The notes: generated from the sequence alone by a model not told the origin. DNA of 64,000 nucleotides from an uncultured Actinomycetota bacterium (GCA_963781545.1 CAWAGN010000016.1:30666-94665), one strand, 5' to 3'. Shown: positions 13,295 to 19,815, counted from the first letter of the stretch. Program-made: numbers and translations.

Positions 13295-14470
13295 GTGACC
13301 ACGACCCAGCCGAGCAGCCGCGCCGAGATCGCGCAGCGGCTCGAGCAGTCCGTGGGCCGGCTGAGCACGACCGCGCTGCAACGCATGGAGCGCGAGATGA
13401 CGTGGTTCCGCGACCTGTCGGCCCAGGAGCGCTCCTGGATCGGCCTGATCGTGCAGGCCGGTATCGCGGCCTTCGTGGACTGGTACCGCGACCCGCACCC
13501 CACCGCCGCGCTCCGCGCCGAGGTGTTCGGGGCGGCGCCGCGCGCGTTCGCGGGCCGGATCAGCCTGCAGCGCACCGTGGCCATGGTCCGGCTCTCGATC
13601 GAGGTGGTGGAGGAGAACGTCGTGGACGTGCTCGGCGAGGCCGACGCGCAGTCCGTGATCGAGGGGATCACCCGCTACGGCCGCGAGGTCGCCTTCGCCA
13701 CGGCCGAGATCTACGCCCGCGCCGCCGAGATGCGGGGCGCCTGGGACGCACGGCTGGAGGCGCTGGTCGTCGACTCCGTGCTCCGAGGCGACAGCGACGG
13801 CACCGTCGAGTCGCGGGCCAGCGCCCTCGGCTGGGAGGACGAGGGCCGGGTGATGACGCTGGTCGGCCCGATGTCCGGGGTGTCCGGCCACGACGCCACG
13901 GACGACGTACGTCGGATCGCGCACGACGCCGGACTCCGCGCCCTGTGTGCCGTTCAGGGTGACCGGCTGGTCGTGATCGTCGGCGGCCCGGGAGCGGGCG
14001 ACGCGTCCCTGACCGACCTCGCGGAGGTGTTCGGCGAGGGACCGGTGGTGGTCGGACCGCTGGTCGACGACCTGGTCGACGTCCCCCGCAGTGCGGCCGC
14101 CGCGTTCGCCGGCTACCGGGTCGCCGGCGGCTGGGTCGACGCACCCCGACCGGTGAACGCCGACGACCTGCTGCCCGAGCGCGCGCTCGGGGGCGACGAG
14201 CAGGCACTCGACCACCTGGTCAGCGAGATCCACACCCCTCTGGCCGAGGCCGGCGCGGTGGTGCTGGACACGCTGCAGGCCTACCTCGACCGGGGCAGCT
14301 CCCTGGAGGCGACGGCCCGTGCGCTCTTCGTGCACGCCAACACCGTGCGCTACCGGTTGCGGCGCGCCCACGAGGTCACGGGACTCAACCCGTCCGACCC
14401 GCGGGACGCCTACACGCTGCAGGTGGCGCTGACCACTGGCCGTCTCCGGGGCCGCGGGTCTAACTTGTAG
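13295..14470 (+). CDS. fasR: PucR/CdaR-family activator of fatty-acid synthesis (FasR/MabR-like)
   Basis: C-terminal HTH LEATARALFVHANTVRYRLRR; directly upstream of fabD; GTG lies 6 nt after TAGAGT. Confidence 0.88.
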   Translation: MTTTQPSSRAEIAQRLEQSVGRLSTTALQRMEREMTWFRDLSAQERSWIGLIVQAGIAAFVDWYRDPHPTAALRAEVFGAAPRAFAGRISLQRTVAMVRLSIEVVEENVVDVLGEADAQSVIEGITRYGREVAFATAEIYARAAEMRGAWDARLEALVVDSVLRGDSDGTVESRASALGWEDEGRVMTLVGPMSGVSGHDATDDVRRIAHDAGLRALCAVQGDRLVVIVGGPGAGDASLTDLAEVFGEGPVVVGPLVDDLVDVPRSAAAAFAGYRVAGGWVDAPRPVNADDLLPERALGGDEQALDHLVSEIHTPLAEAGAVVLDTLQAYLDRGSSLEATARALFVHANTVRYRLRRAHEVTGLNPSDPRDAYTLQVALTTGRLRGRGSNL

Positions 14471-14481: not shown

Positions 14482-14549
14482 ATCTCGGTCGGGCGTTTTC
14501 GTACGTGCCGGATGCGCGTCACCGCGCCCGACTTCGCAAGGATGGATTC

Positions 14550-15737
14550 GTGCTGATCATCGTCGCTCCCGGCCAGGGTGCCCAGAGCCCCGGTTTCCTC
14601 TCCCCGTGGCTGGAGGACCCCGCCTTCGCGGAGCGGCTGGACTGGCTGAGCGCGGTGGCCGGACTCGACCTGGCGCACTACGGCACCGAGGCCGACGCCG
14701 ACACGATCCGCGACACCTCGATCGCGCAGCCGCTCCTGGTCGGCGCCGGCCTGGTCGCCGCGCTGTCCCTCTTCCCGCACCCGTCCGACGCGTTCGACCG
14801 GGTCAGCGCGGTCGCCGGCCACAGCGTCGGCGAGCTGACCGCCGCGGCAGGTGCCCGGGCGATCACCGCCGAGCAGGCGATGGTGCTGGTGCGCGAGCGC
14901 GGCAAGGCGATGGCCGACGCTGCCGACGTCACCCCCACCGGCATGACCGCGGTGCTCGGCGGTGACGCCGAGGAGGTGCTGGCCGCTCTCGACAAGCACG
15001 GGCTCACACCCGCCAACGTCAACGGCCCCGGCCAGGTGGTCGCGGCCGGCACCCTGGAGCAGCTCCAGGCGCTCGCCGACGCGCCGCCGGAGAAGGCCCG
15101 ACTGATGCCGCTCTCGGTCGCGGGCGCGTTCCACACCGAGCACATGGCCCCGGCCGTACAGGTGATGGGCAAGCTGGCCCGCGGTGTCTCCACCCACGAC
15201 CCGCGCTTCGCGCTGATCTCCAACGCCGACGGTCAGGTGGTCCACGACGGCCGCGAGGTCGTACGCCGGATCGTGAAGCAGGTCGCCAACCCGGTGCGCT
15301 GGGACCTCTGCCTCGAGACCATGAGCGACCTCGGTGTCTCCGGCATCCTGGAGATCCCGCCGGCCGGCACCCTGACCGGGATCGCCAAGCGGGCGCTCAA
15401 GGGTGTGGAGACGTTCGCGCTGAAGACCCCCGACCAGCTCGACGACGCCCGCGACTTCTGCGACAAGCACGGCTCGCACTCCCAGATGGACACCTCCCCC
15501 ACCTGGCGGATGCTGGTGTCCCCCGCGAAGGGCACCTTCGTCCGTGACGAGGTGGCCGGTGACGCGACCTCGCTCACCCCGGGCAGCCCGATCGGCACCG
15601 TCCGCAGCCTGCGCGACGAGACGCCGGTGGTGGCCCCCCACGGCGGCACGGTCGTGGAGTGGCTGGTCGAGGACGGCGACCTGGTCTCCCCCGGCCAGCC
15701 GCTGGTCCGCCTGCACCCCGAAGGAGTCGCCCAGTGA
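14550..15737 (+). CDS. fabD: Malonyl-CoA:ACP transacylase FabD with fused C-terminal biotinyl/lipoyl-like domain
   Basis: APGQGAQ, GHSVGE, AFHT and QVANPVRW motifs, plus about 75 extra C-terminal aa with a BCCP-like pattern (APHGGTVVEWLVEDGDLVSPGQPL). Confidence 0.92.
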   Translation: MLIIVAPGQGAQSPGFLSPWLEDPAFAERLDWLSAVAGLDLAHYGTEADADTIRDTSIAQPLLVGAGLVAALSLFPHPSDAFDRVSAVAGHSVGELTAAAGARAITAEQAMVLVRERGKAMADAADVTPTGMTAVLGGDAEEVLAALDKHGLTPANVNGPGQVVAAGTLEQLQALADAPPEKARLMPLSVAGAFHTEHMAPAVQVMGKLARGVSTHDPRFALISNADGQVVHDGREVVRRIVKQVANPVRWDLCLETMSDLGVSGILEIPPAGTLTGIAKRALKGVETFALKTPDQLDDARDFCDKHGSHSQMDTSPTWRMLVSPAKGTFVRDEVAGDATSLTPGSPIGTVRSLRDETPVVAPHGGTVVEWLVEDGDLVSPGQPLVRLHPEGVAQ

Positions 15738-16735
15738 CCGCTCTCAAGGTCTCCGAGACCATCCACCACACAGCCGTCCTCGGGATCGGCGCCTACCGGC
15801 CCAGCCGGGTCATCCCCAACGCCGACATCGTCGGTGCGATCGACTCCAGCGACGAGTGGATCCAGCAACGCTCCGGCATCGTCGAGCGGCGCTGGTGCAA
15901 CGACGACGAGACCGTGCAGTCGATGTCGGTGTCCTCGGCGCGTGACGCGCTGGCCTACGCCGGCGTCGAGGCCGCCCAGATCGACTGCGTGGTCGTGGCG
16001 ACGGTCTCCCACATGCTGCAGACCCCGGCCATCGCGACCGCGATCGCCCACGAGCTCGGCACCGACAAGGCCGCCGCGTTCGACATCTCCGCCGCCTGCG
16101 CCGGCTTCTGCCACGGCGTCGCGATGGCCTCCGACTTCGTGCGCTCCGGCACCGCGAAGTACGCGCTGGTGATCGGCGTCGAGCGGCTCTCCGACATCAC
16201 CGACCCCGACGACCGCGGCTCCGCGTTCATCTTCGCCGACGGCGCGGGTGCGGTCGTGATCGGCCCGTCCGACGAGCCCGGCATCGGCCCGGTCGTGTGG
16301 GGCAGCGACGGTGAGCACTACGACCACATCCGGCAGCGCGAGGACTGGCGCGACGTGGTCGCCTCCGAGTCCCCCCGGATGCCGCACCTGACCATGAAGG
16401 GCAACGAGGTCTTCCGCTGGGCGACGTACGAGATGGCGAAGGTGGCCCGCGAGACGCTCGACCGCACCGGCGTCACCGTCGACGACCTCGACGTCTTCGT
16501 CCCCCACCAGGCCAACATGCGCATCGTCGACGCGATGGCCCGGGCGCTCAAGCTCCCGCCGCACGTGAAGATCGCGCGTGACATTGCCTATCAGGGCAAC
16601 ACCTCGGCTGCTTCCGTACCGCTGGCGCTCAATGCCATGGTGGAGAGCGGCGAGGCGAAACCCGGTGACACGGCGTTGCTGATCGCGTTCGGTGCCGGCC
16701 TGGCGTACGCCGCGCAGGTGATCACCGTTCCCTGA
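15734..16735 (+). CDS. fabH: Beta-ketoacyl-ACP synthase III
   Basis: DISAACAGF (catalytic Cys), PHQAN, GNTSAAS and FGAGL; GTGA overlap with fabD. Confidence 0.95.
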   Translation: MTALKVSETIHHTAVLGIGAYRPSRVIPNADIVGAIDSSDEWIQQRSGIVERRWCNDDETVQSMSVSSARDALAYAGVEAAQIDCVVVATVSHMLQTPAIATAIAHELGTDKAAAFDISAACAGFCHGVAMASDFVRSGTAKYALVIGVERLSDITDPDDRGSAFIFADGAGAVVIGPSDEPGIGPVVWGSDGEHYDHIRQREDWRDVVASESPRMPHLTMKGNEVFRWATYEMAKVARETLDRTGVTVDDLDVFVPHQANMRIVDAMARALKLPPHVKIARDIAYQGNTSAASVPLALNAMVESGEAKPGDTALLIAFGAGLAYAAQVITVP

Positions 16736-16809: not shown

Positions 16810-17055
16810 ATGGCCACCACCGAGGAGATCCGCGCCGGCCTGGCCGAGCTCGTCAACGAGGTCACCGGTATCGACGGCGACGACGTCCAGCTCGACAAGT
16901 CGTTCACGGAGGACCTCGACGTCGACTCGCTGTCGATGGTCGAGATCGTGGTCGCCGCCGAGGAGAAGTTCGGCGTCACCATCCCCGACGACGAGGTGAA
17001 GAACCTCAAGACCGTCGGCGACGCCGTCGGGTACATCGAGAAGCAGCAGTCCTGA
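16810..17055 (+). CDS. acpP: Acyl carrier protein
   Basis: DLDVDSLSMVE phosphopantetheine site; acidic 81 aa; AGAGGA RBS. Confidence 0.96.
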   Translation: MATTEEIRAGLAELVNEVTGIDGDDVQLDKSFTEDLDVDSLSMVEIVVAAEEKFGVTIPDDEVKNLKTVGDAVGYIEKQQS

Positions 17056-17135: not shown

Positions 17136-18386
17136 ATGAGTCGAACCAGAGTCGTAGTGACCGGTATGGGCACGACCAGCCCCGTCGGCGGTGACGTCGC
17201 CAGCACCTGGGACGCGCTGCTCGCCGGCACCTCCGGCGTCCGCCACCTCACCGAGGAGTGGGCCCAGGAGATGCCGGTGAAGATCGCCGGGCGCGTCAAG
17301 GTCGAACCGACCGAGGTGCTGGAGCGGGTCAAGGCACGTCGCCTGGACCGTTCCTCGCAGCTCGCGATGGTGGCGGCGATGGAGGCCTGGGCCGACTCCG
17401 GGCTGGCCGACGCCGACATCGACCAGGACCGGCTGGGCGTCGCGTGCGCCTCCGGCATCGGCGGCGTCACGACGCTGCTGGACAACTACGACGCACTGAA
17501 GGAGAAGGGCCCCCGCCGGGTGTCCCCGCTCGCGGTACCGATGCTGATGCCCAACGCGCCGGCGGCGCAGATCAGCCTGTACGTCGGCGCGCGCGCCGCC
17601 GTGAACACCCCCGTCTCCGCCTGCGCCTCCGGCAACGAGGGCATCTCCCTCGCACTCGACCAGATCCGGCTCGGCCGGGCCGACATCGTCCTCGCCGGCG
17701 GCACCGAGGCGGCGATCCACCCGCTCCCGATGGCCGCCTTCGCGAACATGATGGCGCTCTCCAAGACCGGCAGCGAGGAGGGCGGCGACCCGACCACGGT
17801 GTCCCGGCCCTGGGACACCGGACGCGACGGGTTCGTGCTCGGTGAGGGCGCCGGGATCCTGGTTCTCGAGTCGCTCGAGCACGCCCTGGCCCGCGGCGCG
17901 AAGATCTACGCCGAAGTGCTCGGGGCCGGGATCACCGCCGACTCCCACGACATCGCCCAGCCCGACCCCGAGGGTCGCGGTGGCACCCGCGCGATCAAGC
18001 GAGCGCTCGAGGAGGCCGACATCAGCGCCGGCGACGTGGTCCACGTCAACGCCCACGCGACCTCCACGCCGCAGGGAGACATCGCCGAGGGCCTGATGAT
18101 CCACGCGACGCTCGGCAAGCACGCCGACGACGTCGTGGTGACCTCCACCAAGTCGATGACCGGTCACCTGCTCGGTGGCGCCGGCGCCCTCGAGTCGATC
18201 GCGACCGTGCTCGCCATCCATCACCGGGTGGCGCCGCCGACGATCAACCTGGACAACCTCGACCCGGCGGTCGAGCTCGACATCCCGACCTCCGCCCGCA
18301 AGCTGCCCGACGGCGACATCGCCGCCCTCAACAACAGCTTCGGCTTCGGCGGCGCCAACGTCGCGGTGGCATTCGGGAGCTACTGA
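17136..18386 (+). CDS. fabF: Beta-ketoacyl-ACP synthase II
   Basis: PVSACASG, HVNAHATST, KSMTGHLLG and NNSFGFGG motifs. Confidence 0.96.
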   Translation: MSRTRVVVTGMGTTSPVGGDVASTWDALLAGTSGVRHLTEEWAQEMPVKIAGRVKVEPTEVLERVKARRLDRSSQLAMVAAMEAWADSGLADADIDQDRLGVACASGIGGVTTLLDNYDALKEKGPRRVSPLAVPMLMPNAPAAQISLYVGARAAVNTPVSACASGNEGISLALDQIRLGRADIVLAGGTEAAIHPLPMAAFANMMALSKTGSEEGGDPTTVSRPWDTGRDGFVLGEGAGILVLESLEHALARGAKIYAEVLGAGITADSHDIAQPDPEGRGGTRAIKRALEEADISAGDVVHVNAHATSTPQGDIAEGLMIHATLGKHADDVVVTSTKSMTGHLLGGAGALESIATVLAIHHRVAPPTINLDNLDPAVELDIPTSARKLPDGDIAALNNSFGFGGANVAVAFGSY

Positions 18387-18387
18387 G

Positions 18388-19815
18388 ATGACCCAGGCTC
18401 CGGCTCGCCCCGCAGCCACGAAGCCTCCGCGTGAGGAGGACCCGCGCTATCCGCTCAACCGGCTCGGCGCGCTCCTCGACGAGGGCACCCTGGAGACGAT
18501 CACCCCGGTCGACGACTCCGGCATGCTCGCGGTGTTCGGCCGGGTGCAGGGCAAGAGCGTGGTCGCGTTCTGCTCCGACCCGACGATCATGGGCGGCGCG
18601 ATGGGCGTCGACGGCTGCAAGGTCGTGGTCGCGGCCTACCAGCGCGCGCTGACCGACCGGGTGCCGATCATCGGGCTCTGGCACTCCGGCGGCGCCCGGC
18701 TGGCCGAGGGCGTGCTGTCCCTGCACGCCGTGGGCCAGATCTTCCACGCGATGACCCACGCCTCCGGCGTGATCCCCCAGGTCTCGGTCGTGCTCGGCCC
18801 GGCGGCCGGCGGGGCGGCGTACGGTCCGGCGCTGACCGACGTGGTGGTCCTCGGCCCCGAGGGACGGATCTTCGTGACCGGTCCCGACGTGGTGCGCTCG
18901 GTGACCGGCGAGGACGTCGACATGCTCCGGCTCGGCGGCCCCGAGCCCCACGGCCGGCGCTCAGGCGTCGTGCACGTGCTCACCGAGACCGAGGCCGAGG
19001 CGCTGGAGAAGGCCCGCGTCATCGCGTTCCTGCTGGGCGCCCAGGGCACGCTCGACGTGGACGCCGTCGAGGACCGGGACCTCGCAGAGCTGCTGCCGGA
19101 GAACGCCAAGCGTGCCTACGACGTGCACCCGCTGGTCGACGCCGTGCTCGACGAGGGCTCGATGCAGGAGCTCCACGCCAGGTGGGCGCCCAACATCGTG
19201 ACCGCGCTGGGTCGCTTCGGTGGTCGCACCACCGGCGTGATCGCCAACAACCCGCTCCGGCTCGGTGGCTGCCTGGACTCCGCGTCGGCGGAGAAGGCGT
19301 CGCGGTTCGTGCGCATGTGCGACGCCTTCGGGGTTCCGCTGATCGTGCTGGTCGACGTCCCCGGCTACCTGCCCGGCGTGGGTCAGGAGTGGGACGGCGT
19401 CGTACGACGGGGGGCGAAGCTGCTGCACGCGTTCTCCGAGGCCGTCGTGCCCGCCGTCACCGTGGTCACCCGCAAGACCTACGGCGGCGCCTACATCGCG
19501 ATGAACGCCCGCTCGCTGGGAGCCACCAAGGTGTTCGCCTGGCCGGGCGCCGAGGTCGCCGTGATGGGTGCCGTGGCCGCGATCCGGATCCTGCACCGGC
19601 GCAAGCTGGCCGAGGTCGCTCCCGACGTCCGCCCCCAGGTCGAGGCCGAGCTCGCCGAGGAGCACACCCGGATCGCCGGGGGCATCGACACGGCCGTCGA
19701 GATCGGCGTCGTCGACGAGGTCGTCTCGCCCGCCGCCACCCGCAGCGCGATCGCGAAGGCGATCGCCGGCGCCGGCCTGGTCACCCGCGGCGCCCACGGC
19801 AACATCCCCCTCTGA
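18388..19815 (+). CDS. accD: Acyl-CoA carboxylase carboxyltransferase (beta) subunit, AccD6-like
   Basis: SGGARLAEG, GPAAGGAAY, FVTGPDVV, DVPGYLPG and RKTYGGAYIAM motifs. Confidence 0.92.
   Translation: MTQAPARPAATKPPREEDPRYPLNRLGALLDEGTLETITPVDDSGMLAVFGRVQGKSVVAFCSDPTIMGGAMGVDGCKVVVAAYQRALTDRVPIIGLWHSGGARLAEGVLSLHAVGQIFHAMTHASGVIPQVSVVLGPAAGGAAYGPALTDVVVLGPEGRIFVTGPDVVRSVTGEDVDMLRLGGPEPHGRRSGVVHVLTETEAEALEKARVIAFLLGAQGTLDVDAVEDRDLAELLPENAKRAYDVHPLVDAVLDEGSMQELHARWAPNIVTALGRFGGRTTGVIANNPLRLGGCLDSASAEKASRFVRMCDAFGVPLIVLVDVPGYLPGVGQEWDGVVRRGAKLLHAFSEAVVPAVTVVTRKTYGGAYIAMNARSLGATKVFAWPGAEVAVMGAVAAIRILHRRKLAEVAPDVRPQVEAELAEEHTRIAGGIDTAVEIGVVDEVVSPAATRSAIAKAIAGAGLVTRGAHGNIPL

Follow-up and report, generated by a model that had tools for sequence, protein, structure and literature searches.

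A biotin-carrier-like domain with arginine at the biotinylation site is fused to FabD in Actinomycetia and is associated with an AccD6-type carboxyltransferase

A stretch of 64,000 nucleotides from the genome of an uncultured Actinomycetota bacterium (GCA_963781545.1 CAWAGN010000016.1:30666-94665), hereafter called the window, contains an operon for type II fatty acid synthesis (FAS-II). The fabD gene of this operon encodes malonyl-CoA:acyl carrier protein (ACP) transacylase extended by a C-terminal domain that resembles the biotin carboxyl carrier protein (BCCP), with Arg in place of the biotinylated Lys. The fusion was first proposed in a preliminary description made from the sequence alone. 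The operon also includes genes for a transcriptional regulator, FabH, ACP, FabF, and the β subunit of an AccD6-type carboxyltransferase (CT) (Table 1). The fused domain was found to be conserved throughout a large part of the class Actinomycetia, where it is almost always accompanied by the operon CT, and docking of FabD onto the carboxylase is considered here as its possible role.

Table 1. Features of the FAS-II operon; positions are counted from the first nucleotide of the window.
Feature	Position	Strand	Basis and remarks
PucR-type transcription regulator (FasR/MabR-like)	13295..14470	+	Pfam HTH_30, 1.9e-22; also GGDEF_2
fabD-pseudoBCCP fusion gene	14550..15737	+	395 aa plus stop; GTG start; AAGGA 9 nt upstream
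Malonyl-CoA:ACP transacylase catalytic domain, residues 1-305	14550..15464	+	Acyl_transf_1; 1nm2; invariant columns
Short flexible linker, residues 308-317	15471..15500	+	Low AlphaFold confidence; variable sequence
BCCP-fold pseudo-carrier domain, residues 318-392 (75 aa)	15501..15725	+	Pfam, NCBIfam, AlphaFold, Foldseek
Arg355 codon (CGC), biotinyl-lysine position at the hairpin tip	15612..15614	+	HMMER alignment to 1dcz/2d5d
fabH	15734..16735	+	NCBIfam β-ketoacyl-ACP synthase III, 387.6 bits, above cut-off
acpP (acyl carrier protein)	16810..17055	+	NF002147, 131.9 bits, above cut-off
fabF/kasA-type β-ketoacyl-ACP synthase II	17136..18386	+	TIGR03150, 497.2 bits, above cut-off
AccD6-type CT β subunit, 475 aa	18388..19815	+	M. 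tuberculosis AccD6 4fb8; Pfam Carboxyl_trans
CT Arg181 codon	18928..18930	+	VDMLR181LGGPEPHGRRSG; covaries with the FabD pseudo-carrier domain

The start of fabD was assigned to the GTG codon at 14550, rather than to position 14505, because the homologous proteins begin MLIIVAPGQGAQ. Residues 1-305 of the product match the Pfam family Acyl_transf_1 (E = 6e-22, 79 bits). They share 58% identity with FabD of Streptomyces coelicolor (1nm2; E = 2.8e-103, template modeling (TM) score 0.96, root-mean-square deviation (rmsd) 1.4 Å) and 49% identity with FabD of Mycobacterium tuberculosis (2qc3), with TM-scores of 0.95-0.96 for the two structures. The GHSxG motif (G90-H-S92-V-G), R117, and H195 are invariant in an alignment of 74 homologues. 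The equivalog cut-off of NCBIfam TIGR00128 was not reached (166 bits vs. 260.9), but the protein can still be assigned to FabD from its identity to solved actinobacterial FabDs and from its operon context. Thus, this part of the protein is a predicted intact malonyl-CoA:ACP transacylase. The names on its close homologues are Nocardioides and Marmoricola (Nocardioidaceae). A large subgroup of actinobacterial FabDs is marked by W32 (14643-14645) together with the 'LFPHPxDAF' segment at residues 72-82 (14763-14795).

The tail was analyzed as the last 88 residues of FabD (the 88-mer; 15471-15734), Arg48 of which is Arg355 of the 395-aa protein. The isolated 88-mer passed the cut-off of Pfam Biotin_lipoyl (PF00364) with 23.0 bits against 22.1 (E = 6.9e-5). 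This score is marginal, being 19.6 bits within full-length FabD and 21.9 bits in the genome scan, or 22.8 bits with the neighboring segments. The 88-mer was also matched to NCBIfam PRK07051, 'acetyl-CoA carboxylase' (1.9e-7), and to BCCP chains in the PDB (3.5e-5). The segment RSLRDETPVVAP of the tail was aligned by HMMER to EAMKMETEINAP of the 1.3S transcarboxylase carrier, a true BCCP; therefore, Arg355 occupies the biotinyl-lysine position, as the preliminary description had read it. The (A/V/S)MKM motif of functional BCCPs is missing, since SLRDE stands for AMKME and the flanking Met residues are gone. The hairpin contains no Lys; the sole one of the tail is K20 of the 88-mer, in the first strand. 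Because a conserved Arg replaces the biotinyl-Lys, the tail cannot carry biotin, and the early claim that this site is not biotinylatable is upheld.

The predicted structures agree with these alignments. An AlphaFold model of the isolated domain, built from 69 class-wide sequences, had a predicted local distance difference test score (pLDDT) of 86 and consists of a flattened β-barrel with a protruding hairpin. The best 50 Foldseek matches of this model in the PDB were all biotinyl/BCCP domains, with target-normalized TM-scores of about 0.8, so that the biotinyl/lipoyl fold on which the claim of a fusion depended was indeed found. These matches include Escherichia coli AccB, the BCCP of Pyrococcus horikoshii (rmsd 1.7-1.9 Å), the mycobacterial α subunits of the MCC and LCC (long-chain acyl-CoA carboxylase) complexes, and E. 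coli BCCP in complex with biotin carboxylase (BC) (4hr7). In the model of full-length FabD (pLDDT 91.5), the domain was predicted with pLDDT 87-95. The sole internal stretch of low confidence is the linker 308-317, with a block mean pLDDT of 53 and values below 50 for residues 313-317. The predicted TM-score (pTM) of the full-length model, 0.77, is close to the fraction of the chain made up by the large domain; together with the weakly predicted linker, this value fits a tethered module without fixed orientation. A PDB search found no solved FabD structure with an extra C-terminal domain. Taken together, the sequence and fold comparisons support a BCCP-derived tail that is not biotinylatable at the canonical site.

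The tail is common to 2934 protein clusters, nearly all of about 394 aa, and the domain was found in 207 of the 401 sampled Actinomycetia genomes, belonging to several dozen families. It was absent at E ≤ 1e-9 from the genomes of other classes searched in a 301-genome sample of the phylum. Within the class, the genome scan revealed no domain in a Streptomycetaceae-like family (f30) or a Mycobacteriaceae-like family (f48). In the family of the window's genome, 122 of 151 genomes were above the E-value cut-off; about 115 of these matches were strong and lay in frames of at least 395 aa, and the remainder were weak matches to genuine BCCP domains. By this distribution, the fusion is old and common. 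In public databases, the fusion proteins of about 394 aa are annotated as 'ACP S-malonyltransferase' or 'acyltransferase domain-containing protein'.

Some short library matches, along with short frames in two genomes (G438 and G232), were considered as stand-alone versions of the domain but rejected, since they proved to be pieces of the same fusion operon or assemblies of it with frameshifts. In these two genomes the fab operons are split into many frames, probably by indel errors of assembly, which mimic stand-alone pseudo-BCCP genes. Two proteins of the representative library, P0186 (219 aa) and P0164 (116 aa), have a TGS domain (PF02824, 2.6e-11) at the N terminus, followed by a related pseudo-BCCP with the pattern 'EWLVE..D..RPGQP..RLYP' and no hairpin Arg (TNTLGxHE); therefore, dead carrier domains of this kind are also joined to proteins other than FabD.

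The domain has its own signature, PxWR..VAP..G(T)F ... R(D/E) ... HGGxxVEWLVEDGDPVxPGQPLxRLHP. Among the 69 class-wide sequences, the 88-mer has four invariant residues (E63, L65, D70, and G75) and nine nearly invariant ones (P10, W12, R13, P18, G59, W64, Q76, P77, and R80). All 69 sequences have Arg at the hairpin tip, either at the Lys-equivalent position 48 (59 sequences) or one residue earlier, at position 47 (10 sequences, e.g., SRGR, NRGK, and TRTE), and none of them has an MKM motif. Compared with family members, dN/dS was 0.29-0.70 for the domain and 0.20-0.36 for the catalytic domain (a rough NG86 estimate). Where the domain is missing, it has been cleanly deleted rather than decayed, and good assemblies contain no stops or frameshifts in it. 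By these measures, the domain is not a carrier in decay but a module maintained for a function. The idea that it is an evolutionary relic, i.e., an ancestral BCCP fusion that lost its Lys and persists without function, is therefore very improbable: the marginal Pfam score and the variable sequence of the first half of the domain would suit it, but the class-wide conservation, the invariant residues, the universal hairpin Arg, dN/dS below 1, and the clean deletions all speak against it.

The CT gene lies downstream in the same operon. Its product matches AccD6 of M. tuberculosis (4fb8) with E = 3.7e-186 and 622 bits, vs. 390 bits for PccB; by sequence comparison, AccD6 rather than AccD5/PccB or AccD4 is its closest solved relative. 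The gene scan of the window found no BC or BCCP gene in the operon. The preliminary description had made the same observation, which is correct as to gene content, and had built on it a link between the FabD tail and the carboxylase. That argument carries little weight, because the CT is an AccD6 orthologue and several α subunits with BC and BCCP domains and normal EAMKME motifs are encoded elsewhere in the same genome, the genuine carriers of which read EAMKME or ESMKME. Mycobacterial AccD6 likewise works with an α subunit, AccA3, encoded at another locus. For these reasons, the lack of BC and BCCP genes was rejected as an unusual trait of the operon.

Outside the window, the same genome contains a frame of about 1,830-1,897 aa (G000:C5:604000-610500) in which BC is followed by a BCCP (ESMKME), a long middle part, and a carboxyltransferase; in appearance, this is a single-chain acyl-CoA carboxylase of the eukaryote-like or LCC-like type. 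The BCCP of this chain is the closest relative of the FabD tail in the genome (41% identity, E = 1.8e-5). Other genomes of the family have comparable frames, 1,730-1,970 aa long. Within the operon, the accD start at 18388 lies one base after the fabF stop.

The co-occurrence of the domain with AccD6 was analyzed in 141 sampled genomes of the class. FabD was located in 134 of them, and about 13 kb around each fabD was scored for operon genes. A homologue of the PucR-type regulator lies about 2.1-2.2 kb upstream of the end of the FabD catalytic domain in nearly all 134 loci. Among the scorable fab loci, both the fusion and the operon CT were found in 75, the fusion without the CT in 1, the CT without the fusion in 23, and neither in 30. 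Thus, the CT follows downstream in 75 of 76 fusion loci but in only 23 of 53 loci without the fusion. Operon AccD orthologues share 58-82% identity, and paralogues 43-46% or less. In the genomes without an operon CT (G067, from the family of the window's genome, and G278, G300, G293, and G206), no AccD6 orthologue was found anywhere, the best match being at 43-46%. Additionally, in four families (f1, f13, f20, and f54) the CT, too, is missing from those members that have no domain. Where the domain is retained, AccD6 is nearly always present, but AccD6 also occurs where the domain is absent, as would be expected of a domain that acts via the CT.

When 97 operon CTs (74 of fusion operons and 23 of operons lacking the fusion) were compared column by column, a single position was picked out. 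Across 93% or more of the fusion families, 242 columns were conserved, with one outlier among them, CT Arg181, which aligns with Ser177 of M. tuberculosis AccD6 (4fb8). Arg181 was found in 71 of the 74 CTs from fusion operons, including those of the divergent families f35 and f49. In 22 of the 23 non-fusion CTs, which fall into about 6 separate clades on the CT tree, the position is occupied by Ser, Leu, Ala, or Thr, and this variety of replacements points to separate substitutions. Within one family (f49), the non-fusion genomes have Ser181 and the fusion-bearing genomes Arg181. The lone non-fusion CT with Arg181 (G264) represents the most recent loss, and its sister on the tree has the fusion. 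Column 181 had the highest discrimination score (0.84) of all 475 columns, the next being 0.67, and positions 176, 180, 189, and 190 of the same loop also rank high. As a control, the top column scores in FabH, ACP, and FabF were weaker (0.42-0.53), with no strongly discriminating column in these proteins. In the catalytic domain of FabD, W32 and residues 72-82 appeared to be fusion-specific and were rejected as phylogenetic signal, since the fusion proteins of f35 and f49 lack them and three genomes without the fusion (G067, G278, and G300) have them. Arg181 and the loop 176-190 are a candidate contact site.

From these observations the following mechanism can be proposed. A BCCP domain that once served as a cofactor carrier would have become a non-biotinylatable protein-protein adaptor through which FabD docks on the AccD6 carboxylase, and we put the chances of this at about even. 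The tail would dock on the acetyl-CoA carboxylase built around the operon AccD6-type CT (AccA-AccD6), and the docking site would likely be the surface or groove of the CT in which the α-subunit BCCP domain is normally received. The docking may involve the Arg hairpin, and the invariant acidic patch formed by E63 and D70 ('EWLVEDGD') may face the CT loop with Arg181. FabD, the consumer of malonyl-CoA, would then be held beside its producer, and the first-choice effect would be a local hand-over of malonyl-CoA to ACP; alternatively, the same docking may throttle the carboxylase by occupying BCCP sites. The tail of FabD probably ties the production of malonyl-CoA to its use. A more specific form of this proposal is rather doubtful and is offered tentatively: the Arg-tipped pseudo-BCCP would plug the BCCP/biotin groove of AccD6, so that FabD and carboxylase, which carry out the two opening steps of fatty acid synthesis, would be physically assembled in about half of Actinomycetia and malonyl-CoA would pass straight to FabD and ACP, with the guanidinium possibly mimicking the ureido ring of biotin and Arg181 possibly pairing with the acidic patch.

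Several observations weigh against docking onto AccD6. The 23 operons that keep AccD6 without the domain (Mycobacteriaceae-like f48, as well as f40, f4, and f47) mean that the CT does not need the domain. Conversely, the domain is intact in one genome (G206) in which neither the operon nor any other locus encodes an AccD6 orthologue. On the FabD tree, 5 well-supported independent pairs were available for comparison; in 2-4 of these the CT changed in the same direction as the domain, and in no pair against it (sign test, p = 0.125-0.5). On the CT tree, Arg181 went the same way in 3 of 4 independent pairs and the opposite way in none (p = 0.25). The independent evolutionary events are too few for co-evolution to reach significance, and the association of the fusion with the CT could largely reflect shared ancestry and a few joint losses. 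In the mirror-tree analysis, the partial correlation of the domain was -0.25 with AccD and 0.48 with the FabD catalytic domain (r = 0.73). Finally, docking in the BCCP groove would block a catalytic site, which fits regulation better than channeling. The proposed link to an acyl-CoA carboxylase therefore has comparative evidence behind it (75 of 76 fusion loci with the CT, and Arg181), while the mirror-tree gave it no support and the contrasts remain too few for significance. At the locus of G206 (G206:C61:63602-76774), an open reading frame of 884 aa follows fabF in place of the CT.

In another explanation, the role of the domain is confined to FAS-II. The domain would act on FabD itself, as a lid or through auto-inhibition, dimerization, or stability, or would recruit ACP, FabH, or FabF, and would make no contact with the carboxylase. 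The distances of the domain correlate best with those of the FabD catalytic domain, as given above, although two segments of a single chain would be expected to correlate in this way. The domain is held close to FabD by the short linker, and the fabD stop and the GTG start of fabH overlap as GTGA (15734-15737), which suggests translational coupling of the two genes. Nevertheless, W32 and residues 72-82 of the catalytic domain track phylogeny and not the fusion, FabH, ACP, and FabF lack a strong fusion-specific column, and both the joint loss of the operon CT and the domain and the tracking by Arg181 are left unexplained. A role in FAS-II only is thus unlikely in our view.

A carboxylase contact of another kind would be made by a decoy resembling the plant BADC proteins, which are BCCP homologues without a biotin site that inhibit the plastid heteromeric acetyl-CoA carboxylase (10.1101/634550; PMC12706156). 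By the same logic, the dead BCCP domain would bind the BC part of AccA and lower carboxylase activity in proportion to FabD, giving a feedback between consumer and producer. The BCCP-like fold, the presence of E. coli BCCP in complex with BC (4hr7) among the Foldseek matches, and the several α subunits with BC and BCCP encoded in the genome are consistent with such a decoy. However, α subunits with BC are expected in all sampled genomes (verified in the window's genome), yet the domain tracks the operon AccD6-type CT. The covarying residue also lies in the CT, in a column comparison that covered the CT, FabH, ACP, FabF, and the FabD catalytic domain, and BADC proteins are free-standing and not joined to FabD. 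A decoy acting on BC is accordingly rated as improbable. That the domain is still a carrier, with a neighboring Lys or the Arg itself modified in an unknown way and a group moved between active sites, is scarcely credible: a Lys is found beside the hairpin Arg in 6 of the 69 sequences (NRGK, NRDK, VRGK, TKRE, AKRE, and RRKE), but the window's protein and 63 of the 69 relatives have no hairpin Lys, the flanking Met residues are absent, and biotin and lipoate ligases acylate the ε-amine of a Lys at the hairpin tip only.

Adaptor docking of the tail on the AccD6 carboxylase may be compared with several known systems. Single-domain FabD/MCAT proteins (1nm2, 2qc3) have the same Ser-Arg-His set and the same fasR-fabD-fabH-acpP-fabF operon frame, but they end at about residue 305-316, without the extra domain of the window's FabD. 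The fabD-acpM-kasA-kasB-accD6 cluster of M. tuberculosis (AccA3-AccD6) likewise ends in an AccD6 orthologue and has its α subunit with BC and BCCP elsewhere. Operons of this mycobacterial type (f48) differ in that FabD has no tail, fabH is not in the operon, and CT position 181 is occupied by Ser or Thr and not by Arg. True BCCPs (AccB, 1bdo/1a6x; 2evb; AccA3 in the LCC and MCC complexes of Mycobacterium smegmatis, 9yx0-9yx5) share the fold with the FabD tail (TM-score 0.8, rmsd 1.7-1.9 Å), and the tail has an AccB-like first strand, 'SP.xGTF'. Unlike the tail, true BCCPs have a biotinyl-Lys, flanking Met residues, and a long Pro/Ala swinging arm; in the tail these are replaced by Arg, no Met, and a short linker, and its own signature is formed by PxWR, EWLVEDGD, and RLHP.

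Non-catalytic proteins are known to dock on the CT/BCCP region of actinobacterial carboxylases and to tune their activity. In the LCC complex of M. smegmatis, a BCCP domain was observed on AccD4 in a rotated, static, tethering mode, and the MSMEG_0435-0436 pair binds at the BCCP/AccD5 site of the complex and lowers its activity (PMC13012033). Accessory binders such as AccE and MSMEG_0435-0436 provide a precedent (PMC13012033), but they share no sequence relationship with the FabD tail and are not joined to any enzyme of FAS-II. The plant BADC proteins are like the tail in being BCCP homologues without a biotin site that are tied to the first committed step of fatty acid synthesis (10.1101/634550; PMC12706156). 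They are free-standing and associate with BC/BCCP, whereas the tail is bacterial, fused, Arg-tipped, and genomically tied to the CT; no common descent is claimed. Full-text literature searches found no description of a FabD-pseudoBCCP fusion, and the fusion is not mentioned in a preprint on the fasII operon of R. opacus. Thus, a dead carrier domain serving as an adaptor or regulator is known from BADC; new here are its attachment to FabD, the Arg conserved at its tip, and its link with AccD6.

These findings matter for annotation, as the 394-aa fusions are filed under plain transacylase names. FabD Arg355, the acidic EWLVEDGD patch, and CT Arg181 are candidate handles on the coupling, physical or regulatory, between the supply and the consumption of malonyl-CoA. 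A cofactor-less carrier domain on FabD that is tied to AccD6 would be a bacterial counterpart of the plant BADC idea. If true, an assembly in which the domain plugs the CT groove would show a carrier domain in a new role, that of a docking plug, and would add a new level to the control of lipid synthesis. Acetyl-CoA carboxylase and FabD form the entry to bacterial fatty acid synthesis and are targets for drugs and engineering in actinomycetes.

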